From: Azolla caroliniana
Lineage: Eukaryota; Plantae; Polypodiophyta
Length of the DNA: 64,000 nucleotides
Direction of reading: 5' to 3'
Assembly: GCA_043228905.1 (NCBI GenBank)
Contig: JBHGNT010000007.1
Coordinates: 14,570,001 to 14,634,000, forward strand
Shown here: positions 149 through 58,021 of the stretch, piece by piece
Layout of the letters: the number at the start of each line of letters is the position of its first letter
Position numbering within the stretch: the stretch's first letter is position 1
The notes under the pieces: generated by a model
What the model was told of the DNA's origin: nothing
Database searches by the model: none
The model's input: only the letters and a program-made list of their open reading frames with translations
Made by a program: the position numbers and the translations under genes

Positions 149-182
<34 letters not shown>

Positions 183-821
183 GTTGCGGCCATTGGGTGT
201 AACGGCTCTCTCTGTCGTTGTTGTTGCCGTTGCCGTCGTCTACAACCACTATCTATTGCCCGTCTGCCATCGTGGTCTTCGTCTACCGTCATTGGTTCTT
301 GGCCATTGTCATCTCCGTTGCCACCGCTATCGTGTGTAGTCGTTGACATTGTCGTCGTTGTCGGTTGTCGCTATCACCTACGATTCTGACGACGTCATCG
401 GTTGAGTAAACGAGAGAGCATACATGTGCTTCTACACTCGTACCTAGCACGTAAGGCATCGATGCTCGGCTAAGTTTTTCTGTCCTTTTTGTCTTTTCTT
501 TCTTCTATCTTTTGAATTACAACATGACTTCTAGACGAAACCATAAGGAAACACACAAAGAAATTATAAGTAAGGAGGAATATTTAGATGTCCTTAACCG
601 TTTAGTTGAAATAGAAAAATGGCCGAAAGAGATTGAAGCCGAAAAATAGAAAGATAAGGAAGAAAGAGAACTGCTTATTGCTGAAGTAGCGAAAATTAAA
701 GTAGACACCGTGAACCTTCAAAAAAAATTTCCTTGAGACATCTAGGTAAGATGGTGAAATATCTTCCCTAGAGGATATTAAGGATGAGATAAAAAAGGTT
801 AAGGATGAGGTTTAAAGCGAT

Positions 822-1283
822 ATGGAATCAGCAAAAACTGGGTGGGTTGATGTAGTAAAATATAATATTAAAAAAGAACTAAAGGATGAAAACATTGTAA
901 ACACTACCCTTGAGGAGGAACAAATGTGTCAAGCTCGACGCCTAAATGAACTACTTATTGGGCTCAAGGAAGGGGCGTCTCCCGACGAAGATGCACAAAC
1001 ATTAGGGAAAATGTTGGGGTACGAAGCCCTACCAATCACTAAAACTTGGAGGGTAGGACGTGACTCCGCTAGGAAAAGAGCTTTAGTCCTTCAGTTTAAG
1101 GACTCAGAATCTAGAATTGCCTTTTTTAAAAAGAGACCCATTCTTCGAGGACTGGGCGGGGACCCTATCTCCCTCGATGACAACCTGACCAAGATGCAAA
1201 TTGAGCATCGTAAAACTTGTATGCAACGAGTCATACAAGCTCGTAAAGAGGGGCATCGTTGGTTATCTAATAAGACGCCTTGA
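822..1283 (+). pseudogene. LINE-a ORF1 fragment (coiled-coil plus RRM-like type)
   Basis: Motif order as in L2/CR1-type ORF1p; upstream part 460-820 frameshifted. Confidence 0.7.
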
Positions 1284-1459
1284 AGCTACCCACATGGTTA
1301 ACTCCTTCTGGGTGGCCCCATGCCCCATTGGTGCAAACCATAGCTTCCTATACTTTGAGCTAAAATATGGTAATTCCCACGCCACCAACTCCAGTCAACC
1401 AAACTATCACACCATAATACACTTCACGCATTAGCTCGCTGACATCTACTCTCAACATG

Positions 1460-4084
1460 TGTAGAGAATATGCGGAATAATCTTCCGCCACAACCGAGAC
1501 TTACATCACTTAATGATAAATAAACACAGTAAAAATGGAGAAATGGAAGTACACAAACAGAAGAGAATGCACAGGATGTTAGCGTGGAAAACACTAAACG
1601 GAAAAAACCACGGGAGCCCACAGACTCCGAACTATCACTATGTAAGGAGAATACAATAGGGGAACATAGAGGCAACGACCTCGTGCTCACAATCTTCGCC
1701 TGGTGGCGGTTACAACAAACACTCGCTCTGTCTCTCTCTTTGTTTCCCTCTACTACGCTCTATACAACAGTTACACCAATAACTCTATACAACAAATAAT
1801 GACAACAACAACCAAGAGTTTGCCCTAGGTCATATTTATACTAATATGACTTTCGGGCTATTTACAAATATAGCCCCAATGGGCTCTCTGGAACATATTT
1901 ACATATATGTCCCTTCATCTGGTTCTCACCAGGCCTTCATCATCCAGTTCTCATCGGGCCTTCATCATCCCATACGGAGGGACCGAGATCCTAACAAACT
2001 CCTCCTTCACTCCGGCATGGGATGCCTCGTCAGTCTGATCCGCTTCCGACATGCGTCCAACTTGCCGGGTGTCAGCACCTTGGTAAGCATATCTGACCCA
2101 TTGTCCTCCATGTGGATCTTCGTCAACCTGAACTCTCAATCTTTCACTCGCTCCCGAATCCAGTGGTACCTCCGTTGGATGTGCTTCGTCCTGGAATGAT
2201 ACGCTACGTTCTTCGCAAGGTGGATGGCACTTTGATTGTCCCAGTAGAGCCAGTATTCCTCATGCCGGATCCCTAGCTCTCCGATGAAGTCCTTCATCGA
2301 CAGTATTTCCTTCTCGCTCATGTGATACAATCTCTTGTGCCACAACTCATTGGCAGTGTCGGATGCCACGTTCACTTCTTCCCAGCATCTCCGGGCATTC
2401 ATCAAGTAAAGTGTGTTGAATTTTTAGGCTTGAGCCACTATTAAGCTCCCTTTGTAGAACTTCATGACACCGTTCCGGATGCTACCTGTGTAGCCTTCAT
2501 TATCTAGCCGACCGGCTGATATAAGGTTCAGTCGAACCTCCGGAATGTGTCGTACATCCTTCAACAGCAACTTGCATCTAGTTGATGTCGTCAACAACAC
2601 ATCTCCTATGCGGATAATTCGGCATGTCCCTTCATTCCCCATCCAGACACAGTCGTGCTCACCGGTTGTGTAGGATGAGAAGCATTTTTGGTCCAAGGTA
2701 AGGTGGAACAACGCTCCAGAATCGACAACCCACATTGTCTCGTCGCCGGCAAGGTTCAACTCACTCTCCTTGGTGATGAGCATCACCTCCTCTTCACTTG
2801 CCGCGATTGCCGTCGTTCCCTTCTGGTCTGGTCCTCTCCGGTCTTTGTCGTTCCTATCCGGTGACCACTTCGAATCGGTACTATCGGTTTCCTTGTCTTT
2901 CAGGAATAGCCAACAGTTCTTCTGGAAGTGCCCTGGCTTCCCACAGTAGAAGCAAGTGGGCCTTCCCCTTGACTTTGACCATGTCCCCGACTTTTCCCGG
3001 TTCTGGGGAGTCCGGTTCCTTTGTCTTCCGCGTTCTGATTCGGTAAGGAGCGCTTTGGAGTCAGAGATCGTATCCTTGTCTTTCTGACGTGCCTCCTTAT
3101 CTAGCAAGCTTGACTTAACTCTTGCTAGGGATAGTTGTTTTCCTTCCGGCCCGGCGTTGCCTAACGTGACAACTGATGTATTGCAGCTATCTGGGAGGGA
3201 ACCAAGCAGGAGTAGTGCTACTACCTCATCGGAGAGAGGTACTTCCAACGAGGTTGCCTGGTGTATTAGCCCCTGGAAGGCATTCATGTGCTCCGCCATA
3301 TTAGAGCCATCTTGGTACCGGAGTCTCACTAGCTTCCGAAATACCGAGACCCGATTAACAACATTTTTGTTCTGAAACACAATGTTGATCTTGTCCCAGA
3401 GCTCATGAGCCTTGCTCTCTTCATTGAATTTGTTGTACACGCTCATGTCAATGAAGCACCGGATGTACGCCGTTGTCTTTATGTGCATCACCTCCCACAC
3501 TGTGGCATCGATCTTGTCCGGTCTCTTGTCTCTGAACTAAACCGGCAACCAAAGATCTTTGACCACGAGCATGTCCCTCATCTTCGACTTCACACTGAGT
3601 AGTTGGAGCCGGTGAGCTTGAACATCCCGCCGAACGATTCTTCCATTTTCTGTTTTGTTCGCTCTGATACCAGTTTGTAGAGAATATGCGGACTAATGCT
3701 CGGCCACAACCAAGTCTTCGATTACTTCGTTGAGAATTATAACCACAAAAATGGGAATGTGGAGATAGATGCAAGTACACACAGAAAAACACTGAAAGAG
3801 AGTACACAATATGTTTACGTGGAAAACCCTAACCTGGAAAAAACCACAGGAGCCCACAGACTCCGAACTATGACTATGTAAGGAGAATACAACAGGGGAA
3901 CACAGAGGCAACGACCTCGTGCTCACAATCTTCGTCTGGCGGTGGTTACAACAGAGACTCCCTCTGTCTCTGTCTCTCTCTCTCGCTCTCACCAGGTCTG
4001 CATTATCCGGTTCTCATCGAGCCTTCATCATCCGGTTCTCACTGGACCTTCATCATCCCATCTGGAGGGACCGAGATCCTAACA
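1460..4084 (-). mobile_element. Ty1/Copia B (Tnt1/Tork-like), internally deleted (INT and RT lost)
   Basis: LTRs 1460-1996 and 3676-4084; TSD ACATG (1455-1459/4085-4089); PBS TGGTATCAGAGC (rc 3661-3672); PPT rc at ~1997-2010; gag-PR ORF 2424-3500 (CFYCGKPGHFQKNC, WVVDSGA) joined to RNase H end (HSRTKHI). Confidence 0.92.
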
Positions 4085-4321
4085 ACATGTTCAAGCCCAT
4101 CTCTCCTCTTTTGATTCTTTCTTTCCCTTAGAGAACCTCACTATAGAACTCACACACATCCTTCAGTCAACAACAATTAGTAGCTTCCCATACACGAAAG
4201 ACTCTGATCATAGTAGAATAGGATCTATGTCACAGAACAAGTGGTGTGATGAGGATTGTTGAGAGTTGTATAGACAACTTATAGTGTCGCAACTTAGTGG
4301 CACTATTTCCTCAGTAAAGAG

Positions 4322-6595
4322 ATGCACAAGATGACACGTCATAAAAGACGAGCTTGGGAAGCATCTCAATATTGGGAACTCTACCATATGATCATGAGTA
4401 GGGACCGCTCCCTTGCATGGAAGAGACTATGGGAACCGAGACCACAAACACCCAACGAGGACCCCAATATTTGGCACACATATATCGAGAGACTCTACCA
4501 TGTCCCGGACCAACCATGCATTCCAATGCCTTCCACACCTCGACCTACCATGGGGACACTTTTCACGACCTCTAGGGTCACGAAGGTCATAAAGAAATTA
4601 CAACATAGGAAATTCATTGACCACACAGTATTGCGAGGCAAGCACATCATATATGCTCGAGAACGCCTAGCCCCCCTTCAAATTCTAATCTTCAACCGTG
4701 CCCTCGCCGAGGGTTTTCCACCACAATGAGCCATGAACACAGTTGCCCCTATACATAAAGGAGGGGACCCAATGGACCCAAATACATATAGGACTATTAT
4801 GATAGGTCATACGCTCGCTAAACTATATGGTGTAGTAATGGAAGCGGAGCTCAGTGATTATATGAAAACATTAAGTCTTCGAGCACCTAAGCAGGCTGGC
4901 TTTAGATGAGCCTTCTCCACTATTGACCATATCTTCACACTTCAGTGCTTAATTGACTAGACGAAGGCTCATAAGAAGAAACTATATTGTTGCTTTGTGG
5001 ACTTCCGCAAAGCCTTTGACACAGTTCCTAGGGAGAGGTTGTTTGATAGACTTAAGAGCTTGGAGATACCAAATGACATGATCTGGTTCATTTATGCCCT
5101 ATATGAGCAAGTCTCTGGGTGCATAAGATGCCCATGTGGCCTATCCGATTGTTTCACTAGCACCATTGGTGTGAAACAGGTTTGCCCCCTATCATCGCTT
5201 CTTTTTGGGATCTACATTGATGAGATCACTGATTTTATTGCTCTTAAGGGAGGCAAGGGAGTAGCTATTGGGGATACGCAAGTTAGTCTCTTACTCTATG
5301 CATACGACATTGTCTTGCTCTTGGAGTCGGAACACGACCTACAAAAGCATCTTAATGCCCTAAATGACTTTTGTACACAACGAGGACTAGTAGTGAATCT
5401 AGTGAAAACTAAAGTCCTTATCTTTCATACATCGTCCCGAGTTAGGAGTAAATGTCACCTAATCATCTCTCATAATTTAGTTGAGGTCATGGGACCATAT
5501 GTATACTTGGGAGTCACTTTTAGTGCTCACTCAGGTAAATTCTCGATGACCCAGGCAGCCAAAGATAGGCTAACAAGAGGGTATGCATCCCTCTCACTCT
5601 TAGAGAGACAATGTCACCAGGCATACTTTCAAGAGCCATGGACTAAGGGATGGCTCTTCGACTCATTAGTGACCCCTTCACTCATGTATGCATTAGTAGT
5701 ATGGACTCCAGGTCTACCATCTTTCATGTGGACGCAATTAGAGAGACCTTTGGTGACGATGTTATCACGTCAACTTTGAAGCAAATCGACAGTACCACAT
5801 GACATTATTAGAGCAAAGTTCAGTCTACCCCCGATGTTAGTAGAAGCACTCTTTCAAGTGGTAGTTTCTAGTCATCAGATACATAGTCAACCACAAGATA
5901 GGATATCCCGTCGAGCCTTTGAAGCCTCCCGATCTCTACATGCATCTGGAGACACTAGCTCTTGGTATAGAATTGTAGTGAGTTGGCTACTTGCAAACGG
6001 CATAGACATTAATAACCTACCTCCCCTTAAGTACAACCATGGGACCGTTCAAACTCTAATCTCTCATGAAGGACATAATAAAGTGATATGCCAAGAAATA
6101 TGGCAAAATTACACTCGATATAAATGGATCACCCCACGAGAATCATTCCCATCGAAAATGTTGTACTATTAGGAACACTTCTTGCACTTCTCTAAGTTAG
6201 GTTTTATTACACAACCAAGATATCTAGTTACATTCTTATCAAATGCACTAAGGGTGGCCATTGGACAACTTAGGATATCATCTCACCAACTTGAGATTGA
6301 GAATGGTCGGGCTAATAGAGTCCCTAGAGAGGAAAGGCTATGTAGGTTATGCCACATAGAGATAGAGGATGAGTATCACTTCACATGCAAGAGCCCAACT
6401 TATGCCAAGATACGGGTAGAATACCAAGACATATTAGGACCCCCTCCCACCCTCTCCAAACTATTAGATACCCCGAGTGTAAAGAGACTAGGTAGGTATA
6501 TCTTAGAACTAAAACAAGTAAGGGAGAATAAATTACAAAGTGTTAACCATAACCCTTTTACTATTCATCAACATGTAACTAGTGTAATTTTTTAG
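4322..6595 (+). pseudogene. LINE-a ORF2 reverse transcriptase plus C-terminal Cys/His domain, multiple stops
   Basis: ORFs 4322-4729, 4997-5779, 5834-6172, 6182-6595 carry consecutive RT and C-terminal motifs. Confidence 0.85.
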
Positions 6596-7369
6596 GAACA
6601 AGGGGAGATGATGAATGTGGATACACTTACGCCGCTTGGCCTCTCCCTTGGGGAAGCAGAAATGCAAATAACAACCAAACGCCCTTGGATGTTGGGCTTC
6701 AAAACAAGTCGACGTGGAGTAGAAAGATTAAGAAGATAAGGGAACGTGAGCTACGTCGACTAGAAGCTATGGTTGGGGTATATCTTACATTGGGACCACG
6801 GGCCACATCCACATCACAACCCTTTGACCTCCCGCGTCTCTTCGACAGACTTGGATGGAAATGAAATTAGGTCTGGTTTAATATTTTTTTCATTGTAGAA
6901 CATGTTTTTTATATAGAACAGGTTTGTTATTTTCTAAGAACTATTTAGCTTTAACTCTATTTTTATCTTATTTTTATTTTTACTTTCGATGAATGGGTAA
7001 ATATCCCATTTTGTTTGTAAACCATTTGTCTCATGGGCCAAATTTGGCCTTAGAAGACATTAATATATCTTTCTTTCTTCTTTCTTTCTCTCTCTCTCTC
7101 TCTCTCCGATTACGACTGACGACCATACTCCGGAAGATTGGTTGTACTCCCTGCGCATCACACGCACATTCTCACTAATACTGTTAATCTATTCTGTTGT
7201 CTTGTGTTGCAATTCTGTCATATCACGCTATAACGGTGACCTACGGCCGTCTCACTCATGTCCCTCTCTATTATGTCTACGGTCTGCGTGTACGCAATGC
7301 GTGGGATATTCCTCTCCTTTGCTTGATTCCTTAATGTCTACACATCCATGCGGAATTCCATGACATCTT

Positions 7370-7385
7370 TGGTTAACCCGACGTG
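7370..7385 (+). promoter_or_regulatory. Primer binding site complementary to tRNA-Trp 3' end
   Basis: TGGTTAACCCGACGTG vs plant tRNA-Trp complement TGGTGAACCCGACGTGA (1 mismatch), 4 nt after LTR end. Confidence 0.8.
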
Positions 7386-7438
7386 GAAAGGGCTCGCAAA
7401 GGAATCTGAAGATACGAGGAAGCGAACTCGCCGAAGCA

Positions 7439-8634
7439 ATGGTGGTGGCGAGAGACCACCTGGTTATCGCTCGCGAGGGCACGAGTGCCCTTGACAGGGT
7501 CATAGGAACGACGGTCGACAAGATGGGCCGGTTTAATGGGAAAAACACCACGAGTTACTTGGAGGCCTACAAGGCTGAGATGCAGATGAGGAATATTCTA
7601 GAAGATAGACGGTTGACCGAGTTTCCTCAGGTCATAACGCCAAGCATCCATGTGGAAGTGCTTGAGGTACAAGTGAACTATCGTAATTGGGCAAACTTTG
7701 AGGGACGGATCTTTGAATGGTACAACTTCGAGGACTCGCTCCGGTTGTCAAAGGAAGATTTCATGGATTGGGTTGACAGCCCTGGCAAAGGTCAAAACGC
7801 ATCGATGCTCCTTCAGGAGTTCAAGTCGTGGTTTGCACAACTCTCCACATTGGACCATACCGTGCTTGACACGAATAAGGTTCTGTTGTTTGTTAAGTCG
7901 TTCGACTTGTTCAACCGCGATAATGTGGGTCTCCTCTTCGAGACGAATGAAGGGCTCACGGTTGACTGGGTTGTGGTCAAAGGAGTATGTGGCACGATCG
8001 ACAAACGGCGAGACTAGAAAGAGGAGGGTTCCTCGACAATCGGTTTGACGCCAAAGACAAGGGTCAAAGCTAACGCCGACCCGAACAAAAGAAATGAGGA
8101 AGTTGCCCAAGTTGGGCCAAACTCCGACCAATGTAGCCGTGGGACAATCCGGGGATGCGCCTCTGGTGGAGCTGACGAAGATGGTGCGTGATCTCCAGAT
8201 TGCTTAGGCCCGAAGGAGCGACGGAGACCAACTGCGCGATCGACATCAGACAATCAACCAACAGTGCTTATGGTGTGATGTCATCGGCCACGCCCAGAGA
8301 GACTATGCCGACTTTGGGGAAGCACTCAAAAATGACGTGGTGTACCTTTGGAATGGCACACTGCACGCAAGTAACATGCGCAAAATGCTCGAAGTAAACA
8401 CCGGACGAGGCAGCATGAAGAGGTTGATGGAGGAGGTTGCGGCGTGGCACATCGAGGCTATCCACCACTCGGCCTCAGCCGGCATCCGCGTGGGTACAAA
8501 GGCCATTAGCACTGATGCAAACCCCGGATTTTACCCGGTGGTACTAGAGACCTTCTCCAAAGTGAAGTTGAAGAAGGGAGAAGCAGACCGCACCGAAAGA
8601 CGTGTACACGATGTCATCGGATGGAGCGATCCGG
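7439..8634 (+). pseudogene. Gypsy A gag region (resumes at 15831)
   Basis: ORFs 7439-8017 and 8337-8634; homologous to gag at 34480-35150. Confidence 0.75.
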
Positions 8635-11600
8635 TGTTGTGTGATTCTTCACACACTATGTAAAAATATAATGAATTTATTATTTTAGATTAGATTAGTG
8701 GCTTGGTATTAAAAGATAGACATCTTCAATACCTTCAAAACACATTTTACTACATATAAAATGGACAACTGCATATCAAGTTATGTGAATATGAAGTTTG
8801 AGAAGATAGGAAAAATAGAATTGTGAAATACCTCACACAGATAGGAAATTTTAGAATCCAACTATATAAGAAGATTGAGAACCATTAGTTCTCATCTATG
8901 TGTTTGGAGCATAAAAGGAATGGTTGGACTTGGGTCACTTTGTTTAGATGGACATATGTGGCTAAGTCACCGGATGTGGCTAAGTTGTCCAAACCTGTCG
9001 GTGATGGAACTTGAACCGACTGGCGAAGGAACAAGAACTGGTCTGCGATAGAGCCGGCAACCGGCAACTGGACAGAACCGGCAACCGACCGAACCGGTAA
9101 CGGAACGGAACCAGAAACGGTTGGCGACAAAACCGGCGACAAAGCCAGGAACCAACGATGGAACCAATCGGGCGGAGACCGAACGGATTGAGATGGAAGG
9201 ATGATAGGATCATGCGGTGAATTAAAGTAAAGTAAAGTAAAGTAAAGGCCATGTGGACGCATGCAACTGAAGTTGGAGGGCATTCATAAAGTAAAGGTCA
9301 TGTGGAAGGCATGCAAAGAAAAGGTGGAGGCCATGGAACTACAATAAACGCCATGTGAGACGCATGCAATGGAAATTGAGATGCAAACTGAAGTTCCTTC
9401 ATGCAAGTGTATTGGTGGGGACAACACTAGGAATCCTAGTTTTTTTAGGAGTTCTATCCCCTCAAGGAGACTAAAACCCTAATTTTTGGGATCAAAGCCA
9501 TATCACTCGTATAACCCTAATTTTCCTTATGAATGCCATATCTCATTGTTGAGAATCAAGCTCAACTTGGTCTAGTGTGTGAACTCACCTTGAGAGTGAA
9601 TAGACACTCCAACGGTCAAGAGTCACCATTCTGTCACCTCTTTGTATTTTAGCATTTAGTATGAGTCATAGAATCATATTCTATGACACATAACTTATGA
9701 GCTTTCACATTCCCCATGCTCCATGAGTCTTTTAATTAATGAAGAGAGAGGGTGACTATATAAGGAACCCTCCTCCCACCTATATAAGGACAAGGCGGAC
9801 GAGGTCTGACCTACGATAATAACTCCCAATTTCGGCCGCAAAACGGAAGCCAATGAGGAACCTTCGCAAGAAGGGGGAGCTTCCACTCCGGCCCGAGCCG
9901 TCAAAACGCAACCGAATGCGGATATTGCGGAAAGCTCGGCAACCACAAAGAAGAGTGCCGAAAGAAGATGCGTGAATCGGCTTCCACAAGCCGACAACTC
10001 ACGAATTACGTGCACAATTCTGACTACGAAGAGTATAGCGGATTGTATAGGCACAGCTCCGACTACGAGGATCGTGGCGGAATGTTCATAATGAAACATA
10101 GAGCAAACTCTATGTCGGCCTCTACCTCAACTAGTTCCCTCAATCCGGAGGACGTATGGTTTGTGGACTCCGGAGCCTCAAACCATATGACATCTCATAA
10201 AGAATGGTTTCTCGAACTTCGAGAGCCGGAGCGACCCGGTTATGTCGAAACCAGAGATGACACTACGCACCCGATTCGGCACATCGGCATTGTTCCATTC
10301 GGAAAAGAAGGTAAGAAAAATTACATTAAAAATGTCCTGCATGTATCGACCATTACGAAGAATTTGGTCTCCGTCGGCCAAATTGTAGAGCAAGGGATGC
10401 AAGTTCGATTTAATCAAGGCGGTTGCTTCATCGAAAAAGAGGGCCAACTCATCACACACGGACGAAGAGAGGGCTGAATGTTCATTTCGACTCACACGAG
10501 ATGAAATCCGCCATGTTCGCAAAGGGCATGAAAGCCGACTCCGACATAGAGTTGTGGCACAAGCGAATTGGCCACATCAATCTCAACAAACTCAAAGCAA
10601 TGAAATCGAAAGGAGTCGTCATCGGACTCCCGACATTCAAAGAGAAGGAGATTGAAGGTGTATGCAAAGCATGCCAATTCGGCAAGCAACACAGACACCC
10701 ATTCCCGAAAGAGCAGAATGTGAGCAAAGGTCTACTCAACATAGTCCATTCCGACGTATGGGGACCGGCGCAGACGGCTACATTCGGCGGATGCCCATAT
10801 TACATGCTCTTCATCGACGACTTTTCTAGGCACACTTGGATCTATCCGATGCGGCAAAAGAGCGAAGTGTTGGGACACTTCCAAAAATTCAAGAATGAAG
10901 TCGATAAAGCCACGGGCCGACATGTACGATGTCTCCAATTGGATGGCAACAAGGAGTACTTCTCGGACGATTTCACGGCGTATCTCCGAAAGGAAGGAAT
11001 TCGGCGAGAATTCACTTGCCGACACACTCTGCAACAAAACGGAGTAGCCGAGCGCAAAAATCGGCACATCCTCGAAGTAGCGCGGGCCATGATGAACGAG
11101 AAGCATATGCCCAAGTCATATTGGGCTGAAGTTGCAAATACGGTCGTCTACCTAATGAACCGGTCACTACGCATGAAAAATACTTCTGAAAGAAGCAAGA
11201 CTAATCACACACTCGGATATTCGGCGCAATAGCGTACGTGTACATCCCCGACGAGAAGTGTCAAAAGCTTGACCCGAAGTCGGAGAAATGTATCCTCGTA
11301 GGATACTCATTGGAGCAAAAGGGGTACAAGTGCTACAACCCCTCAACTCGAAAATCTCGAGTAAGTCGAGACATCGTTTTTGACAAGTCTGCATCCTGGT
11401 ACACACTAGAGACAACTTCGACTCCGACTCCGCTCGACCCGGAATCCACCGAACAAGAGATCGAGGATGAAGATTGCCCTATGCGCATGATGGAAGAAAG
11501 GCCGATCACGACCCGACTGAGCGGACCACAAGAGCCTTTGAGCGATCAAAGCACATCACGACCTAGCCCGAAGATGGACAAAGGCAAGGCGAAAATGGCG

Positions 11601-12208
11601 GAATACGCAGACGATCGCGTCGACGACGATGAGTCGACTCACTCACTCCACAGTGAGTTCAGCGACTTCGATGTTCCAATCAGAGCTAATAAAGCCCTCA
11701 TCTCTGCAAATGAAAAGCTCCGCCGATCCACTCGTGAAAACAACCCCATAAGCCGATTCGGCTACAACGATTATATGGCGTACCATTACGCCTTTATGAT
11801 GAAGGTAGTGACAATACAGGAGCCGCAAACCTTTTCCGAAGCCGCGAAAGATCCGCGATGGATCGAGGCAATGAATGAGGAGATGCAGGCCCTACGGAAG
11901 AACGAGACGTGGGATCTCGTTCCCACCTCCCCACACAAAAAGGCGATCGGATGCAGATGGATTTACAAAGTGAAGTACAACGCTAACGGTTCTGTCAACC
12001 GCTACAAAGCGCGACTCGTAACGTTTCACTACGCACAAATGCACGGAGTTGACTACGAAGAGACCTTTGCCCCGGTGGCAAAGATGACGACGGTACGAAC
12101 CGTAATTGCGTTTGCCGCGGCGAAACGGTGGCACCTCCATCAAATGGACGTCAAGAATGCCTTTTTACAAGGCGAATTAGAAGAGGTGTACATGATACAA
12201 CCACCCGG

Positions 12209-12986
12209 TGTCGTGAAGAATTTCGGCTAGAGGCGGAAACCGGGAAACATTGGCTACATCGGCGGGGTGCAGCGTGTGTGCTCACCCATGTACATTTAGT
12301 GTGAATAACGAGGGCGCCTTTATGGCGCCGAAGAGTAGTCAAGTCGGGACAGACGATCCCATGTAAGTCAGGATTTATCCCACATTGTAACGCATCCCTC
12401 TCCTTGTTCTATAAAAGGAAGGGAGCGCCCTTTGTGAAGGGGTTGCCCATTTTGCGTTAGAGGGTATACCGTTAGATTTAGAGTTAGTAACATTTCTTCT
12501 TCTTCTTCTTCTTCTTCTTCTTCTTCCCCCTTCGTGTTCGCTTAGGGTTTGCTTCAGCTCGTCTCCTGCGCAAGACCCTGCTCGGCGGGACAAGCCCGTG
12601 AGCTCCCCGACCGGCGGCTTGGCAGCTGACGACTACTGTAACCTACCTCGGTCCGGCTCGAAGCCGGGAATGTATTCTTCCTTTTATATATATACATTTG
12701 CGTCTGTCTGTGTATATTCGCTTCTCCGTTGGTGTCGGGTGCTTCCCCTTTCCTGCGTTTCCTGTACATAAGGGCGTGAGTCGGGTCGGCATGTGTGTGT
12801 ATGTGTGTGCGCGAGTCGATGTTAAGCGTGTGCTCCCTCTCTTTCTCTCTCTCCCTTCGGTCGCTTCCGATGTGCTTCTGGGATGCCCCGGAAACGGTGA
12901 AGCACAACTTCCTACATTCCGTCACTCCCTAGTCCAAGACCCCCGTGGTCCCGCCTTTCTCCACGCACGCGCGTAACAACGCGACA
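12209..12986. mobile_element. Gypsy-type solo LTR (778 bp) inserted in Copia C RT
   Basis: TGTCG...CGACA; TSD CCGG (12205-12208/12987-12990); removal restores QPPGF; contains (CTT)n at ~12496-12525. Confidence 0.88.
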
Positions 12987-13806
12987 CCGGCTTCAACTCA
13001 AGCACCCATCTGAAAGCTATATGCCGACCCAAGAAGCCACTCTACGGCCTCAAGCAAGCACTGCGTGCTTGGCATTCGAAGATAACGCAATATCTTCATC
13101 AAATCGGCTTCCGTATGTCAAAATCGGACAACTCCCTCTACATACGAAGAGATTCCGCAAGTCTTCTCGTCATCATCTTATATGTGGATGACCTAGTCGT
13201 TGGAGGTGAGCATCTCGTCGAAATCAATAAGGTCAAATCCCTCCTTTCCGACAAGTTCGAGATGACGGACATAAAGGAGCTCTACTACTTCCTTGGCATC
13301 GAGGTAATTCGGACTCCGGCCGGAATCATGATCTCTCAACGGCACTACATTCTCAACTTGTTATACAAGTTCGGTATGGCTGAGTGCAAATCCGTCGCAA
13401 CCCCACTCGATTGCAATCTCAAACTGGATGCGAACTCTGACACCAAAGCGTGTGAGCCGACTCAGTATCGGCAACTCATCGGGAATCTCATCTACCTCAC
13501 GATCACTCGACCCGATCTTAGTTATCCGGTCGGTCTCCTTAGTCAATTCATGCAAACACCACGTGATATTCACTTGGATTGCGCTAAGCAAGTTCTACGA
13601 TACGTGAGCGTCACAATGGATTGCGGCATCCTCTACAAGACCGCGATGCCAATACGCCTGAAGGGGTACACAGACGCCGATTGGGCCGGCTACAAAGCTG
13701 ATAGAAAATCAACCTCCGGATTTGTTTTCTCCCTCGGCAGTAGAGAAATATCCTGGAGCAGCAAAAATCAACCAACCGTCACTCTTTCGAGCACAGAGGC
13801 GGAATA

Positions 13807-14558
13807 TGACGGGAACTCAAGGCTCCTTATGTCCAACGCTTGGCCACAACCGAGATTCTTTTCATACACAGTAAACGGGAAACAAATGCATAACACAAAG
13901 GAGAGAAAACAAAGGTAGACAGGATGTTTATGTGGAAAACCCCAAACTAGGGGAAAAACCACGGCAGCCCACAGGCTGCAAACTGTCACTATGTAAGAAT
14001 GTACAAAACAGTGAGTTCACGGAGGCAACGACCTCGAACTCACGATCTTCGCCACAGGCGGCGGTTACATCAGAGGCAGCGATCTCTTTCTCTCTTTCTC
14101 TCTCTCTCTCTCTACAACGTTACATACTCTCTCTTCTTCTTGCACCAGCAAGAAAATGACAACAACTCATACTATTAGTTTGCCCTAACTCATATTTATA
14201 CTAATATGACTTTTCGGCTATTTACAAATATAGCCTCGATGGACTATCAAAAAACATATTTACGAATATGTCTCTTCATCCGGTTCTCCGTAGCCGGGTA
14301 CTCCTCATCCGGTCTTCACCGGGTCTGCATCATCCAGCCCTCCGTAGACGGGTACTCCTCATCCGGTCTTCATACCGGGTCTGCATCATCCGGCTCTCCG
14401 TAGCCGGGTACTCCTCATCCGGTCGTCATACCGGGTCTGCATCATCCGGCTCTCAGTAGCCGGGTCCACCTCATACGGTTTCGGCCTCGGCCTTGGCCGA
14501 GTTTGTTCATCGGCACTGTTCTTCTCCCTTCCCATCCGGAGGGACCTGTCTCCCAACA
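13807..14558 (-). mobile_element. Copia-type solo LTR with 54-bp tandem repeats, inserted in Copia C RNase H
   Basis: TGACGGG...CCCAACA; TSD GAATA (13802-13806/14559-14563); removal restores EAEYRGAA; homologous to LTRs of Copia B and to 41373-43085. Confidence 0.9.
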
Positions 14559-17500
14559 GAATATAGGGGCGCGGCAGTGGCCGCATGTGAAGCCATATGG
14601 CTCAAAAGGATACTCAAGGATCTGGGTGTACCCATCAAGGATCTGACTTCCCTTTACTACGACAACATGAGCAGTATCTATCTGGCTCGGAACCCGGTGT
14701 TCCACACGCGGACAAAGCACATCGAAGTGCACTATCACTTCATCCGAGAGCGCTTTCTAGCTGGCGATGTCGACCTACAACACATTAGCACCAATCTTCA
14801 AATGGCCGACATCTTCACTAAAGCCTTAGGAGCCGACAAGCTATGGCAATTCATGACTGATCTCGGATTGACGATCCCTGACCTGCCAAGCTTGAGGGGG
14901 AGCACTGAAGACATTATGCAATAACGTGTGGATTCCGCAAATCATGCACACTACGCAAAGCCATGAAGAGCCAATCTACCGCGCAAAGCCGCGAAGAAAG
15001 ACGCAAGCCGAAGCACAGACTTCGCAACTACGCACAACGCAAGCTGGAGCACGGATTCCACAACTCCGCATAAACGTGAGTCGATGCGGACTCCGGAACG
15101 CGAGTTGAAGCGGATTTCGGATACCATCTGAAACTGACCCGACTTGCGCTTGAGGGGGCGTGTTGAGAATCAAGCTCAACTTGGTCTAGTGTGTGAACTC
15201 ATCTTGAGAATGAATAGACACTCCAACAGTCAGGAGTCACCATTATGTCACCTGTTTATATTCTAGCATTTAGTATGAGTCATAGAATCATATTCTATGA
15301 CACATAACTTATGAGCTTTCACATTCCCCATGCTCCATGAGTCTTGTAGTTAATGAAGAGAGAGGGTGACTATATAAAGCACCCTCCTCCCACCTTGTAT
15401 TGTGTTGAGTCTTTCTCCTTTGTTAATATACTTTTACTTTGTGTATTCTGTGTGTAGTATTCCTTGCCTCTCTCACTCTCGAGCTCTCTCTCTCATACAC
15501 ACACAAAACTCACATCTCTTCTACTTCACAAGAATCATATCTGATTCTTTACACTCATGTATAACCCTAATTTTCCATACGGAAGCTATATCTCGCAAAA
15601 ACCCTAACCCTATGTTTTTTCTTTTCGAAGCCTCATAATTCCTAAACTTTTATAATCCGAATCTCGGGATAGATTGTAATTTTTCTCTTTCTTTACTAAT
15701 AAAATTTATCAAACTTTGTCATATCAGTTAATTCTTAATACAAAAACACACGAATTTGATATCCTCTACTCGGAGGCCACGGGGTCCTGCCTCAAGTTCA
15801 CATGTCTTCGTCGTATTTTCACGACACCGGTTGAGGAAAAAACCGGCTTTGTAGAAGCCGGGTGCCAGAACTACAAGGTTCTGGTCGACAACAAGCGGGT
15901 CAGAAAGACCAGAGGAGTGGGCCCTTCGAGGAGGTATGACACCTAGAGCAAACCTAAGAAGAGCGATGTTACTCCGGTTGGATCTCAAGAAAGAGAAAGG
16001 GGAAAGGTTCCAAGCTTCCGGTTAAGCTCGAAAATCGAGAAAACGACGGACCTACGAAAGGTCTTGGAGGAGCGAATCCTTGATAGTCGCGTAGAACTCA
16101 CAATGAGAGAAGTGCTAGGCATAACAAGGAAAGAGTTACACAACGGCATCTTGGATCTCGTAAAAAGGAAACGGCTCGCGACAGAGTCAGAACCGGTGCA
16201 ACACTGCTCGACGAGCTGGTCGCACAGGTGGAAGATACGCGCGACTACACGAGTCAGGGAGGAGTTACACGGGGCTTGCCCGAATGTTTGAGTAAGGCTT
16301 GGTGATTTCAAGATAGACCAGTACTTTTTCGTGTTAGAGACATCCTCCCATCCGGTAATCCTCGGAGAACCATACATCACAGCATCGCGAATGGAAACCA
16401 AAGTGTTGGACAATGGTTCGGCCTATGCGAGGGTGAAGAGTCAGGACGGCCATCACTCCATTTTGTTCCTGGTAGTACGACATAACCATGAGTGTAATAG
16501 GGACACTCTCGACAATGTAGCTTGAGAGGATTTTTAAAATGGCTATCAAGGCATGGGGCCACGATAGTTCGAACGACCGGAGCAAACCCCACAACTGTAC
16601 TATAGGTAGGAAAATTTTGTTCTCCGACAACGGAGGTTGTACATAACCGATATTAATGGCCGGAACAAGAAACAAGTCGAAGGGCGCTTGAAAGCGTGCG
16701 GAGCCTTTGGCCACGATGATGAGATTGGCAACGTCGTGGAGGCGGTCTCATTCGATGACACCCTTGGGGAGATCGAGAGGGTAGTAGAAAGGGTTCTAAG
16801 TGAAGACCATGCCATATCGGTTAATTCAGTTGAGATGTATGAAGTCATCGTGAACTTCGAGAGGGAAATTGGGGCGCATCGACCACCCGCATGGACACAA
16901 AGTACAAGACTGTGGACCGGGAGGTGAAGCCAGTGTGGCTCCCTTGCCAGAGGGCAACTGGGAACGAATAAAGGGGGTCTCTACCGACCCAAGCTTGCGA
17001 GATCCGGCCGGCATAAGACACCGGTTCACCGACAAGACGCTATGAGAGGTGAAGATCGGTGGGGGTGGCTTCCTTCTACCAGCCGAAGAGGACTGCTTTA
17101 TGAGGGTGCTCGAGAGGCACAGGAAAGCCTTCGCATTCTCGATGGTAATCTTCACGGGACCGCACGTGACGTGGAGTCTCTAGCGGAGGCCAGAAGATGT
17201 GGACCAAGCAACGGTGAGAATGGAAGAAGCGCAAACCAGGAACAAAGCCCGGTTCGACAAGACGCACCAACTCCGACCGAGGAAGGCGATTGGGTGCTAG
17301 TCTACAACAACAGTCTCAACAACCAGCATCGGTCCATGCGTAAGTTTGCAAAGCGTTGGTTCGGGCCATACGTACTCACCAGTGCGAACAACAACGTAAC
17401 ATACTACCTCGCGGAGCTCGACAGGACCAGAATAGCGACGCCAGTAGCAGAGGAGCGGATAAAGGCCTTCAAGAAGCAGCACGAAGCGGAACCAGACCCG

Positions 17501-17943
17501 GCGTTGGGGATTGAAGGCCACATTTCGAACGAGGAGGACGAGTAAACGCTAGCCCGAAAATCTTCCACTAAACTCACTACCTGTCACATGCCAAAGGATG
17601 TGCAGTTTGATGGAGATGGATGTCGTCAAGATTTCAGGCCATAAGGGGAAACATAGCCAAATGCGTGTGAACGCGGTTGTGCACAAGTGCACCCCCTTTT
17701 GTACTAACATGTGTAAATACTAAGTAATGATAGGGTTTTGGTGATTACTAGGAAATGAGGCTTTAATAGGTGCTCTAATATGACGCAGGTGGAGGAGAAA
17801 ATCAAGAAGAGCATCAAGCAGGATAACAAAAGGTCATTAAAACCTGATGTAACGGTCGTCCCTTGCGATATAAATGGGGCGGCCCCAAATTGTTTTAGGG
17901 ATTCAGATTTTAGGAGAAGGAAACTCTGTCGTTCAGAGTACCG

Positions 17944-17946
<3 letters not shown>

Positions 17947-18007
<61 letters not shown>
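17947..18007 (+). repeat. (CT)30 microsatellite, LINE-b insertion site
   Basis: Perfect dinucleotide run directly 5' of the LINE-b ORF1 remnant. Confidence 0.95.
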
Positions 18008-18009
<2 letters not shown>

Positions 18010-21000
18010 AGGAGAAGAATATAGAAAGCATAGATGTCTGAGAATTGAAAGAACGTGAACGACGATCAAAGAACATTGTCGTCCGTGGGATTAAAGAAGA
18101 GAGTATGGAAACACTCGCATCCCTTGGAAAGGCCATTGGTGAATTTTTTAGCATGCATTATGGGATGTCAGATGTGAATGTATATGGGGCACACCGAGTT
18201 GGGAAACATGGTGTTACTCGCTCCGGAGAAAGGCCTATTGTATGCACAATGACAGATGATACAAAGCGGTGGATCATACTCGAAAATAGTTGGGTATACC
18301 TCAAAGGTACACAATGCTTTGTGAGTGAAGATCATACTATCTCACAACAAAATGCTCGTCGTAAAGCATATGAAGAAAGATTGAAAAACAAGGTTAAGAA
18401 TATGCCTAAAGATGGAAATGTAGGCAAATAGGGACACGTGATCTATGAGACTAACCCACGCCTTTTACGACTATGCTTTTGGAATTGCAATGGATACCCA
18501 TGGAATGCGGGATTTGGCATAGAGGAGTTCACCGATGACTCGGATATCACACTTCTTGTTGAAACATGGGAGCATGATACTCAAAGGATTCAAGGTTTAG
18601 GAAACTATAATGTACACTCTTTGATATGGAAGAAAAATCCAAGACAAAGAAGAGGACAAGGAGGGGTGGCATGTTTGATTAAGAAGGAAATAGAGAAATA
18701 TGTGTCAATCATAAAAAATGATGAAAATAAAGGCTACATATGGCTCAAAATAGAAACACCTAATGATATGCCCACTTTTGTAATTGGATGTTACATTCCT
18801 CATCAAGATTCTAACTTTTATGCTTGTTTGGATAAAGATCAACCGTTTGCCAATCTAGAAGATGATATTGCTTATTTCAAATCCAAAGGGGAAGTTATTA
18901 TCTTTGGTGACATGAATGCTCGTACAAGAAGTTTCCAACTTGATTCACAAGAATCTTTCATGCCACATATCTCAAGGATGCAAGAGGATAGGAAAATGTA
19001 TAACCACTCTTCTAGCGATGAAAAAGATCCAGACCAATTTGGGAAGTTACTCCTACAAATGTGCAATAGTACCGGATTGCTTTTTGCAAATGGTATTTCC
19101 TTATGGCCCAACACTAATGGTTTTACATGTAGAAAACACAACGGAAATAGTGTGATGGACTATGTGCTACTTTACGAAGGCATTTTGGATCGTATACATA
19201 AATTCTCACTTGGTGAATGGACACCGGAATCCGATCATATGCCCTTATGTATTGATCTCAAATGTATGCATAGGTTTGATTGTGAGAAGGCTATTGAAGA
19301 TAATAAACAGCCGCACTTGAGCATGAACCTTAAGCGAGCACCCATGTATTCCAAGATGGTTGAGGATATGTTACAAATGACAAAGATACAACATGGTGCC
19401 ACACTAGAATGCAAATGGGAAGCTTTCAAGGAAGTCATTCTCTCATGTACAAACAAATGTTTTTCGACCAACCGCACATCTTGGAAATGCACCAAGAAAC
19501 TTAGGAAAAAATGGTTTGATAAAGAATGTCGTGAAGCTCGAAAGTGCCTTATGGTTTTGGATGTAGTTAAGGATAAAGAGAATTACCAAAAGCATTTGCA
19601 TGAGTATAAAAGGCTTATTCAAAGAAAGAGAAGAATATGGGAAGTTACACAACAATTTATCCAAACGCAAGAGAAAGCACATGCATGTGCTAAATTTTGG
19701 GGAAATCTAAAGGGAAAACGTGTTAAGAGTTATGGTGACTTAACTCTTCATGACTTGTCTATGCATTGTAAGAATTTATATGTTGCAGGAAAGATGATGT
19801 GTTATGGTTCTCTTTCACATATGCCTCCCTTCTTTACAATTGAAGATATATGCATAGGACTTAAGAAATTGGCCTCTCGAAAGGCAAGCGATCTTCAATG
19901 TATAAAGGCTGAAATGCTCAAATGGATGGGAAAGGAAGCACATATATGGATAAGAGATATGTTTAATGATGCATTGCAACATGGTATGCCGTACGATTGG
20001 ACTACAAATTGGATCAAACCTTTACATAAAGGTGGAGATATAAATAATGTAAACAACTATCGAACCATTATGGTTGGCTCATTAATGGCAAACCTATTTG
20101 GATGTATAATGGAATCAAAGATAAGTGTATGGGCTGAAAAAAGTGGTAAGAGAGCTTATGGACAAGCTGGCTTTCGGAATCACCATAGCACCATTGATCA
20201 CCTTATCACCCTTCGAGTATTAATGGAGGAAAGTCGCCTTAGAGGTAAAGGTTTATATTGTTGCTTTGTAGAATTCAAGAAAGCTTTCGATATGGTACCT
20301 TGTGAGCATCTTTGGAGGCGAATGGAAGAACTTGAGGTGCCAAGTGAATATATGCTTGCAATTTCCTAAATTTATGAGAAGGTTATATTTTTTGTGCGCA
20401 TGAGAGATAAACTTTTAGATTTTTTCAAAAGCACTATTGGTGTTAAGCAAGGATGCCCACTCTCACCAACACTATTTGGTCTATGCATTGATGATTTGGA
20501 AGAAATGGTTACCAAGTTTGCAAAGGAAGAATGTGTTGAAGAAGTTGCCATTGGGAATGTTGTGATTATGCTTTTGCTATATGCAGATGATGTAGTGCTT
20601 TTTGCAAATACTTTAGGAGATGCACAAAAGCTTATGAAGGCATTGGAAAAAATTTGCATGCATACTAAATTAAGTGTCAATAGCTCTAAAACAAAGATTA
20701 TGCTTGTGAAGAGCCAAAAAGGAGATAAACCATGCATTATGTACAACAATGAGCCACTTGAATGTGTGGAAAGCTTCAAATATCTTGGCCTTGAAGTTCC
20801 TTCAAATCATAGATGGAATGAATGTGCTACACGCCGCTTAGAGGTGGGCAAGCGAGCATACTATGCATTTGAGAACACATGCAATCTTGGAGATATTAAG
20901 TGTTGGGTCCTCAAGAAATATCTTTTCGACACTTTGGTGACATCGGTTCTTCTCTATGGAGTGGAAGTATGGGGCGGTAGCATCCCTAAATCTATGTGGA

Positions 21001-21866
21001 AAGAGTTTGAAAATGTCCAAAAGCATTTTCTTACCAAGTTAAGAAACAAACGCCCTCCTCCTTGAGACGGGATCGCTTCCCATTGAGATCATGGCCATTC
21101 AAAGGGTTGTTGAATACATGCTTAAGGTTCAAAAAAGTCCCTCACATCGACTTCCTAGAATTGCGTGGGAAGCAATCAAAAAGATCCAAAAGACGCATCA
21201 AAGCAAAATTTTGTGTTCCGGTTGGATACAAGATATAGAAAAATGGTTTGGTAGATGGGATGCAAGACACTTGCTTCATGATGCATCATTAGATTCCTTT
21301 GTAAATGAGCCATTTTTGCAACGCCAATGTATCATGACATGGGACAAATGTGGAGGCTCACGCTTCACGCATTATACTACACATGTTGCACCTAACTACA
21401 AAACCATATTCTTTGCGGAACGGGGAAATCGTACACATCCATACATGTTAGAGCCCATACTATTATCTACCATTCGAACCATTGCTTCCATGCGACTTAG
21501 CTCACATGCATTGCGATGTGAAACAGGGCGTTGGGGTACAAGTGATGAGAGTGGTCGGGTATGCACACTTTGCCCTAAACAAGTTCGCGAGTCTCAGTAT
21601 CACACTTTGATACAATGCTCTGGCTTTGATCATATTCGACCATGCTTTCCACATCTCTTCAATCGAGCCCAATCTTTGCATGAATTCCTCTCACAACCAC
21701 AATGTGCACTCTCGATTGCAACATTCATTAGTAAAGTTCTTGAACATCAAGAGTCACTACTCACTTTCACACGTATCACGTGAAATGTAATATTTTTGGT
21801 CTCATAGGTCATATTTGACCTCTGAAGACGATAATATAATCTATCTATCTATCTATCTATCTATCT
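18008..21866 (+). mobile_element. Non-LTR retrotransposon LINE-b (RTE-X/L2-group-like), 5'-truncated within ORF1, ORF2 nearly intact
   Basis: ORF1 C-terminus 18045-18431 (RRSKNIVVRG, HRVG, RPIV, VSED); ORF2 APE motifs (WNCNG, ETW, GGVA, GDMNA, DY, SDH); RT (QAGFR, GVKQGCPLSP, LLYADD); C-terminal RLSSH.L..ETGR..CTLC; (TATC)n tail ~21839-21866. Confidence 0.92.
18438..21783 (+). pseudogene. LINE-b ORF2 (APE-RT-Cys/His domain), one stop at ~20367 and a frameshift near 21050
   Basis: ORFs 18438-20369, 20394-21065, 21091-21783. Confidence 0.9.
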
Positions 21867-22251
21867 CCGATTACAACCGACGACCGAACTCCGGAAGGTG
21901 CATCCTCTGCTCACGTCAGACGCCCACTTGCTCCCGACTAGAGGATCATCACTCTGTGTGTGTTTACAGTAGATCTCGAAGCTCTATTCCCGGCTCAGAC
22001 CAGTTGTACTCCCTACGCATCACGTGCATGTTAACTACTATTGTTAATCTATTCTGTTTTCTTGTGTTGCAATTCCGTCATATCGCCCTGTAACGGTGAC
22101 CTACGACCGTCTCACTCCTGTCCCTCTCTATTATTTCTACGGTCTACGTGTACGCAACGCGAGGGATATTCCTCCCTTTTGCTTGATTCCTTGGTTCAAG
22201 ACACCTGTGGTCCTACCCCATTTCTACGCATCCGCACGGAATTCCGCGACA

Positions 22252-55310: not shown

Positions 55311-56800
55311 ATTCGTGTACACAGCTTTTGGTGGCTTGGTTTCTATTTATGTGGTTTCACTTAAGCAATTGTTGCCTACTCTTATAAACTTGAATATATG
55401 TGGCTTCTACTTTATAGAAACATTTCAATTGTTATAGATAACAACAAACAAAAAATGTTTTCATGTAGTAATGCTTGCATTTATATAGTTGTTAATTGAA
55501 TTAACGCTAACTCATATACGTAATTATTAAATTCCATGAGGTGTGAACGATTCCATTCCAAACTCCCAAATTTTGTGACAGTTTGGGAATTACCATATTG
55601 TTAAGTAGTAATTTGATCATTGAATTCTTTAAACGAGTTGGTTAATATGAGAGCACAACTAACTCCATTGTGCTTCAACTAGTTTAATTATGTGCTTCAA
55701 ATAAATGATGCTCTGAATTTTAACTTGCCAAATATACTCTTAGAATATATTTGGTGGTTAGCCATTACATGGTCTGTGATAGTATGTTTAAGCATTTAAA
55801 AATGGAAAATAAGGAACACGAGCATATACATGTATGCTATTCTAAATTGGTCCCTATTTGAAATTAGGCCCTAAAAACAAGGGGTGACGCTTGAAGTGAG
55901 GTCTATTGTACAAGGAAGACCCTACAAGCGTTTTGAGACTGAATTCTGAGGAATCACGTCCGTTGACTAAAATCGGCAAGTGACAATCTATGGTCACCAA
56001 TGGATCATGCCTACGGATGCAATGATGTGTTCGCACTTTACGCACATGAAACATTATGGAATATTCGAATTGGAACTTGTGTGGACTGTGATATTATTTA
56101 TTGATATACTTTTTGTAAAGGGCGGTGCCTAAAATTTTAGGGATCTACGAAGACATTACCAAAACCATTGGAAATATCTTTGGCACAACATTGTACATGA
56201 ATAATTATATTAAGGACGGCTCAATATGTTATGGAAAGTTATGACCATTCCTCTAAAAAGTGAACTTCATGATTGTCACACACGTTTAAAAAGCCAAGAA
56301 TCATCAATGATGTTTAGTGTCATCACACTACATAATCAAGAGTCATGTCAAATGGAATCGATAAGGGTGCGATGAAGCTATAACGTGGGCGGCAGCAAGA
56401 TTCATTACGTGTTAAGCACTTTGAAACTGAGAAGATTTTTTTCTTGATTATAAGTCATAATAAGAACCATCATAACACAATTCACAGAGATATTCATTCA
56501 TTCATTCATTCAAATTCCAAGAACATATATATCGATATAACAATTTTAGAGTGGTGATTGCGAATAGTAATTATGAGATTTGCGTCAAGAGGTATAATAA
56601 TACATATACTAATTACAAAAATGGTTGTGCCCCATTAAAACACCATGAGGATATAATGCATCATAGTTCACAAATTTGGGTTTGCATATTAAGAAGTGTT
56701 TAGATATATTTCCGACATCATGTCGCACCGGAATTCCCCTTAAATTTCCTTTACAATGTGCTTAGGACTTGTTTCCCATTATTCATGATGTCATCATCTT

Positions 56801-58021
56801 TTGGTTATAAGTGTCTTAATCGTCTCTCTTCTCCTTTTATCTTTTATAGCTTTACCCATACTACTTTATGTCACATTGAGTCGTTCATTCCTAGTGGATG
56901 TGTCCACTACGACCACGACCACGACCACGGTGGGTGTGAACTATGGCCAATTGGCCAACGACTTGCCGGCACCAGAGGAAGTGGCTCGTCTCATTAGCTC
57001 CATTTCGGTAACCAAGTCGAAGCTCTATGACACAAACACGACCGTGTTGTCAGCCTTCAAGAACACAGGGATCTCGTTCGTGGTCGGGACACTCAACAGT
57101 GACCTCATTCCTCTCGGGCAACAATCGGGTTATGCGGACTCGTGGGTCCAGACCCACATCCTCCCTTTTTACCCGGACACAAACATCATCGGGATCGTAG
57201 TGGGAAACGAGATCTTCACATCCTCTACCGATGAAGCCAGCGTGGCATCGATGGCCTCAGTGCTCCCCGCCATGCTTAATGTGTACGCGGCCCTCCGTAG
57301 CCTCGGGCTCGAGCACCAGATCTTCGTATCGACCGCCCACGCCTTCTCGACGCTGTCTGCCTCGTACCCTCCGTCCACGGGGGCCTTCTACCCTTCCATT
57401 GCCAATGCCTACATGAAGCCCGTGCTCCAATTTTTGTCCCAAACGGGTGCACCTTTCATGGTCAATGTCTACCCTTTCTTCGCCTACAAGGCCGACCCCA
57501 CCACCGTGTCCCTCGAATATGTCCTCTTCCAGACCAATGCCGGGGTCCTAGACCCCACCACAGGCCTCCGCTACTACAACATGTTCGATGCCCAGATGGA
57601 CGCCGTCTACTCGGCCATCTCGGCCCTCGGGTTTAACGACATAACATTGTTGGTGTCTGAGACCGGATGGCCCTCCAATGGCGGTGGCGATGAGCCGGGC
57701 GCCACACTCGCAAATGCCCGGACATACCATGCCAATCTCATCCAACACATCACTTCCAAATCGGGCACCCCGTTGCGCCCGGACGAGACCCCTGAGATCT
57801 ACTTGTTCGCCCTCTTCAACGAGAATCAGAAGCCCGGCCCCGTGTCGGAGCGCAATTATGGCCTCTTCTGGCCCAATGGTACCAAGGTCTATAACTTCGA
57901 CTTCACCACGCAAGCCTCGTCCTCTTGGGTTTCGGCCTCGACCCCTCGTCTCTTTACCGTCACATTGTTGATGCTTTTGGTACAACTATTGGTCCTTCCT
58001 TTCTATAACTCGTGTTTATAA
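56801..58021 (+). CDS. Glucan endo-1,3-beta-glucosidase (GH17), probably GPI-anchored, no X8 domain; true start uncertain
   Basis: VGVNYG..ANDLP, KLYD, VVGNE (acid/base Glu), PFMVNVYPFF, FDAQMDA, VSETGWPS (nucleophile), LFALFNENQKPG..SERNYGLF; Ser-rich then hydrophobic C-terminus; GC-rich codons unlike the flanks. Confidence 0.92.
   Translation: MVISVLIVSLLLLSFIALPILLYVTLSRSFLVDVSTTTTTTTTVGVNYGQLANDLPAPEEVARLISSISVTKSKLYDTNTTVLSAFKNTGISFVVGTLNSDLIPLGQQSGYADSWVQTHILPFYPDTNIIGIVVGNEIFTSSTDEASVASMASVLPAMLNVYAALRSLGLEHQIFVSTAHAFSTLSASYPPSTGAFYPSIANAYMKPVLQFLSQTGAPFMVNVYPFFAYKADPTTVSLEYVLFQTNAGVLDPTTGLRYYNMFDAQMDAVYSAISALGFNDITLLVSETGWPSNGGGDEPGATLANARTYHANLIQHITSKSGTPLRPDETPEIYLFALFNENQKPGPVSERNYGLFWPNGTKVYNFDFTTQASSSWVSASTPRLFTVTLLMLLVQLLVLPFYNSCL

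Follow-up and report, generated by a model that had tools for sequence, protein, structure and literature searches.

Two LINE copies with similar 3΄ ends

We analyzed a 64-kb stretch of DNA from Azolla caroliniana (Polypodiophyta; GenBank assembly GCA_043228905.1, contig JBHGNT010000007.1, positions 14,570,001 to 14,634,000 of the forward strand), hereafter called the window, in which two long interspersed nuclear elements (LINEs) of different families, A and B, end in similar stem-loops. The original prediction had taken these stem-loops for covarying 3΄ elements recognized by the reverse transcriptase (RT) of the LINEs. A conserved and covarying stem-loop was indeed found, but this reading proved incomplete, as the 5΄ arm of the hairpin is also complementary to, and covaries with, a second site at the junction of open reading frames (ORFs) 1 and 2. 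The features of the two copies are as follows (window positions).

182–7070 (+): family A LINE, decayed; 5΄ boundary approximate, after a CT tract
about 656–1259 (+): family A, ORF1 remnant
about 1461–4084: Copia-type insertion inside the family A copy
4085–6864 (+): family A, ORF2 remnant
6865–7027 (+): family A, 3΄ untranslated region (UTR) 5΄ of the hairpin
7028–7058 (+): family A, 3΄ element; outer arms 7028–7031 and 7055–7058, with a CAT bulge between the 5΄ outer arm and the inner stem
7035–7040/7045–7050: family A, inner stem with a 4-nt loop
7028–7040 (+): family A, 5΄ arm, predicted to pair with the junction in intact copies
7059–7107 (+): family A, linker, (CTTT)n tail and (CT)n tract
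18012–21841 (+): family B LINE, 5΄-truncated; 3΄ part of ORF1, and ORF2 with APE endonuclease and RT
18429–18439 (+): family B, ORF1 stop and 8-nt spacer; TAG at 18429–18431, in frame with ORF2, context AAA-UAG-GGA
18440–18451 (+): family B, junction arm, complementary to 21799–21810
21799–21829 (+): family B, 3΄ element, architecture as in family A; inner stem 21806–21811/21816–21821
21830–21866 (+): family B, linker and (ATCT)7 tail

The family A copy has lost its ORF1/ORF2 junction through an internal deletion of ~810 nt. The family B copy is 97% identical to an intact copy; its ORF2 contains one stop and one frameshift and terminates at 21781–21783. The RT regions of the two window LINEs are 37% identical, and the intact ORF2s of families A and B are 31% identical. 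The 3΄-end sequences of both LINEs were found where the original prediction had placed them, and both fold into an inner stem with an outer GUCU/AGAC helix (z = –3.3 and –4.3). The C-G versus U-A compensatory change and the G.U versus A-U difference between the two stems were likewise confirmed, as was the ~60-nt 3΄ UTR of the family B copy. The corresponding figure of ~470 nt for family A had been counted from a premature TAG (6593–6595). Because intact family A ORF2s stop 162–164 nt before the motif, the true stop is TGA at 6862–6864 and the UTR comprises about 206 nt.

Occurrence and covariation of the 3΄ hairpin

The shared pattern was matched twice in the window and in none of 100 shuffled sequences; in the 523-Mb genome it yielded 1,275 exact matches, compared with 0 for the reversed control. 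A looser pattern (1,117 matches, mostly family C; control, 5) revealed family C, and a divergent protein query revealed family E, whose tail pattern gave 466 matches (control, 10). The hairpin accordingly terminates four LINE families of this genome (A, B, C and E; ORF2s about 30–47% identical), and a fifth, F, was obtained from a metagenome scan of another source, together with B2 (70% identical to B; F is 38% identical to B). ORF2 carries APE endonuclease and RVT_1 domains, whereas no Pfam match above the cut-off was found for ORF1. We presume, from a C-terminal Cys/His motif, that these LINEs belong to the RTEX clade. The closest named protein relatives are from Adiantum, with further ones in Taxus and Riccia, and none were found in the viral and prokaryotic collections. 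Over half of the family B query, identity to an Adiantum protein is 77%, and proteins of other samples match family B at 69–78% (P0011, P0001–P0003), but identity to families A and C of the same genome is about 30%. Contigs of four sequencing runs span the element, a type of coverage that cannot show transcription.

In all five families, the stem-loop directly precedes a short tandem-repeat tail, the repeats among families being (CTTT)n, (ATCT)n, (TTCTAA)n and (CAAAT)n. Each of the two window ends folds into a 6-bp inner stem and a 4-bp outer helix, with a CAU bulge between them. In an eight-row alignment of A, B, B2 and E, 80 of 80 cells were paired and two pairs had changed on both sides. 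This pairing score was reached by 3 of 500 shuffles, which, like our other shuffle controls, ignore relatedness among rows; the alignment tool warned that such relatedness inflates covariation counts. Slid controls reached 30–54%. Families C and F, the 3-nt loop of which is misaligned, were excluded from this alignment and added by hand. With their inclusion, pair 4 occurs as U-A or C-G, pair 8 as G.U, A-U or G-C, and pair 11 as C-G, U.G or U-A. Every inner and outer pair is retained across the five families, with double changes at three pairs. The structural conservation and covariation anticipated from two copies therefore extend to further families. When copies were chosen by protein alone, a motif with no more than three mismatches was present in all 16 B and all 18 A copies and in 27 of 30 E copies.

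A quick RT tree (59 of 63 rows kept, built without clade references) divided the families into (A,C) and (B,B2,E,F), a split with which the states of the tail agree. The bases directly 5΄ of the motif are unrelated among families (3–15 of 31 alike). We conclude from these sequence comparisons that the 3΄ element is old, has been held by selection and was not recently exchanged.

Several searches around the element gave negative results. The 115 sampled ends displayed no accumulation of 5΄ truncations at the stem base (4 ends at 0–10 nt versus 17 at 11–50 nt), and Rfam returned a single sub-threshold match, which we take as chance. For the partner short interspersed nuclear element (SINE) envisaged in the original prediction, 46 short copies among the same ends, a sample of a few percent of >2,800 ends, contained no common non-LINE head, and no tRNA sequence was found in 30 loci.

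The genomic setting of the copies was also recorded. In 56 of the 115 sampled ends, the tail is succeeded by a (CT)n run, compared with 41 of 2,280 background windows; such runs could represent either a target preference or tail slippage. Both window LINEs are inserted in the (CT)n tract of the two copies of one repeat (88–90% identical), which likely represents the long terminal repeats of a Copia-type element:

1–181 / 7141–7332: repeat copy flanking the family A LINE
17808–17988 / 22003–22192: repeat copy flanking the family B LINE

The families are often nested in one another's tails (L032, L056, L128 and L129). One locus (L002, near 1480–1531, minus strand) harbors a minimal insertion of hairpin and tail alone; its target duplication is 14 nt or longer and ends in microhomology to the stem base. 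Amid the retrotransposons, the window contains a glycosyl hydrolase family 17 gene at 56789–58021 (+).

Complementarity between the 3΄ element and the ORF1/ORF2 junction

ORF1 and ORF2 are separated by a single in-frame stop codon in families A, B, C, E and F, the upstream in-frame stretch available for this comparison being 9 codons in F and up to 78 codons in E. In all five families, the bases at positions +9 to +20 after this stop are complementary to positions 1–12 of the 3΄ element, from which they are separated by about 3.4–4.0 kb, and the spacer between the stop and the junction arm is exactly 8 nt. The complementarity in the family B window copy extends to 17 bp (18438–18454 with 21796–21812). 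Among the 3,396–5,088 windows compared per element, the junction was the best duplex site for the tail in 8/8 elements, at –23.6 to –27.2 kcal/mol. The next-best sites reached –13.0 to –18.7 kcal/mol, and the sole close second was a local duplicate of the junction in a family E copy (L298), in which the end of ORF1 and the junction are repeated near 1825–1913.

Covariation between the junction and the tail was seen at positions 4, 8 and 11. Cognate matching of junctions and tails was the best of all 120 permutations, with 61 of 65 pairs being Watson–Crick; for five families, the lowest attainable P-value of this test is 1/120. In the junction helix, all three bases of the CAU left single-stranded by the hairpin are paired, which explains the near invariance of this CAU. 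Comparison of subfamilies A1 and A2 showed that 23/23 junction and 30/31 motif positions are identical, as against 76/120 four-fold degenerate sites and 111/142 UTR positions. In three other samples, a C at the position of window 18442 converts the G.U pair of family B to G-C, and protein N-termini from other samples (MAHET, MTYET and MAHGT) are compatible with the junction motif. Old E-like tails carrying G8 predicted a C at the opposite position of the junction, and 5 of 12 junction-pattern matches were such E-like junctions, standing before E-like ORF2 starts.

The general junction pattern had 864 genomic matches (control, 2), a few of which are antisense tails. Twenty junction-pattern places were fetched; of the 19 that we read, 11 continue into a LINE ORF2-like start, one (L357) is doubtful and the others look like chance. 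No tail was found in the fetched stretch of any of these 19 places, and no junction was found with any of 20 old variant tails.

Family B seems to weaken both partners of G10 in turn, the junction C having changed to U first and the hairpin C later; the latter change is present in 13 of 16 intact copies (L031–L046, L114 and window 18442 were considered). This could reflect a rebalancing of two conformers.

Since one 5΄ arm serves both pairings, the hairpin and the long-range helix are mutually exclusive. The hairpin, at about –10 to –14 kcal/mol, is weaker than the junction duplex, at about –24 to –28 kcal/mol when the penalty for long-loop closure is left out of account, and the first 30 nt after the stop, taken as an isolated stretch, fold at 0 to –4.5 kcal/mol. 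When sequences from junction to tail were folded, the long-range helix was predicted in six of seven elements, and when the junction was forced open, the hairpin was predicted in seven of seven. The covariation of junction and tail in five families, together with the mutual exclusivity of their pairing and the 3΄ hairpin, is what is new here. Taken alone, the hairpin would simply add one more ordinary case to the stringent class.

A putative readthrough switch, its alternatives and known systems

The stop codons stand in the contexts UGA-CGG (A and F), UGA-CGA (C), UAG-CAA (E) and UAG-GGA (B). In plant viruses, UGA-CGx, UAG-CAA and UAG-GGR are readthrough contexts that are accompanied by stems of at least 12 bp after an 8-nt spacer (PMC3159437), and the contexts, 12-bp stem and spacer of the LINEs match these signals. 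The first in-frame AUG of ORF2 lies at codon 161 in B, 103 in A1 and 64 in F, in each case past a conserved WN motif at codons 15–17 of the endonuclease domain. Taken together, the stop contexts, the stem spacing and the late first AUG point to readthrough.

On this basis, we hypothesize that the 3΄ element is a two-state RNA switch in which junction pairing promotes stop codon readthrough and the hairpin serves the start of reverse transcription, a reading that we consider slightly more probable than not. The 5΄ arm would pair with the 12-nt site behind the ORF1 stop and stimulate readthrough into ORF2. A ribosome reading through would then melt the long-range helix and free the tail beside the new ORF2 protein, whereupon the tail could refold into the hairpin, be bound by this protein and be reverse transcribed. 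Binding of the hairpin by the ORF2 protein is putative; we infer it because the place and hinge of the hairpin resemble those of eel UnaL2 and zebrafish ZfL2. Under such a scheme, only RNAs with an intact tail would make RT, whereas 3΄-truncated RNAs would not, and freeing of the tail for copying in cis would produce cis preference.

Several observations weigh against this switch. Readthrough, in vivo structure and protein binding are known here as predictions from sequence, and five families provide few independent changes. In family A, pair 4 of the long-range helix is a U.U mismatch, the unconstrained fold of family C kept the hairpin rather than the long-range helix, and minimum free energy folding of RNAs of 3.5–4 kb is unreliable. 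In the E-like subfamily, G8 junctions and G8 tails were never found in the same copy. A search for longer relatives of the family A ORF1 fused to ORF2, which is a weak test, yielded three gene models and no clean fusion. Finally, reinitiation is possible, given that the third codon beyond the stop reads AUG in C and E, and GUG in A and B.

Reinitiation is accordingly the main rival to readthrough: the same switch might govern termination–reinitiation at the AUG or GUG located 6 nt past the ORF1 stop, with the helix covering or presenting this codon, analogous to the coupling in SART1 and L1. Such reinitiation is an established route of ORF2 expression in LINEs described earlier, involving a downstream structure in SART1 (PMC5972666), and AUG occupies codon 3 in the old E-like subfamily as well. 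However, this codon is GAG in the single contig of F, the first AUG of which is at codon 64, and single older copies also lack AUG or GUG there. The UG of codon 3 is moreover forced by its pairing with C12-A13, all five stops are in known leaky contexts with the frame always kept, and the helix contains an invariant out-of-frame AUG. We regard reinitiation as unlikely, albeit serious. The out-of-frame AUG is found in all families (window 18445–18447) and, in family A, is followed at once by UGA.

Alternatively, the hairpin might be a plain stringent-type RT signal, with the junction pairing serving packaging, circularization or tail protection rather than translation. Its position before a repeat tail and its two stems with a hinge are as in UnaL2 (PMC1636434), and ZfL2 likewise displays a loop that differs from family to family (PMC4176376); however, the constant spacing of exactly 8 nt behind the stop across families and the leaky stop contexts would then lack an explanation, and we consider this reading improbable. 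A recent tail swap between families, in which the junction match is a functionless copying artefact, might be imagined from the nesting of LINEs in each other's tails and from copies that join pieces of two families, but is very improbable and largely refuted by the agreement of tail states with the RT tree, the unrelated upstream bases, the differing tail repeats and the cognate junction/tail covariation.

The translation of LINE ORF2 and the choice by its product of its own RNA pose two long-standing questions, usually handled separately, which the 12-bp helix appears to link. We would give roughly even chances to the broader proposal that a deep and widespread land-plant LINE lineage makes its RT as an ORF1–ORF2 readthrough fusion licensed by its own 3΄ hairpin pairing back over ~3.5 kb, which would constitute a retrotransposon counterpart of the tombusvirus switch and a built-in mechanism of cis preference. 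If this is the case, readthrough joins the known routes of LINE ORF2 expression, the ORF1–ORF2 fusion is the active enzyme, and LINEs and plant RNA viruses have converged. No description of LINE readthrough or junction–tail pairing was found in the literature searched, outside the scope of which lay Repbase, most subscription papers and supplements; under the same limits, and with results that were partly noise, none was found of RTEX hairpins or of RTEX in seed-free plants.

Covarying 3΄ hairpins of plant LINEs are already known. The ~50-nt hairpin shared by monocot L1 and ZmSINE elements (PMC3472496, PMC3747384) likewise covaries and has been read as a stringent recognition signal, but it belongs to the L1 clade, is shared with SINEs and has other conserved bases (CGAG flank, UCU loop), and no junction pairing is described in the accessible text. 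Eel UnaL2 and zebrafish ZfL2-1/2 (PMC1636434, PMC4176376) also possess a two-stem hinged hairpin directly before the tandem repeats of the tail; its stem is conserved and its loop differs among families. Unlike in those elements, the 5΄ arm here has a second covarying junction partner, no partner SINE was found in our sample and binding is putative. SART1 and L1 (PMC5972666) resemble the present LINEs in their bicistronic RNA, and SART1 in a structure downstream of the ORF1 stop; they differ in using reinitiation (an overlapping stop–start in SART1 and a 63-nt spacer in L1), with no tail pairing described in the text accessible to us.

The type I, II and III readthrough signals of tobra-, furo-, alpha-, tobamo- and gammaretroviruses (PMC3159437) share the contexts, the ~12-bp stem and the 8-nt spacer, but their stem closes over ~100–150 nt or is a local pseudoknot, whereas that of the LINEs spans 3.4–4.0 kb. 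A further parallel is the PRTE-DRTE/RIV switch of tombusviruses (PMC3234231), in which a stop before the polymerase is likewise combined with a ~3.5-kb pairing to a 3΄ replication element, the 3΄ structures are mutually exclusive, and the same quality control and cis preference have been proposed. Tombusviruses are plus-strand RNA viruses with an RNA-dependent RNA polymerase, and the stop is followed by a large local stem-loop, whereas the present elements are LINEs with APE and RVT_1 domains in which the long-range helix itself begins 8 nt behind the stop. By this comparison, the putative LINE switch resembles the tombusvirus system in its working and is not a member of it.

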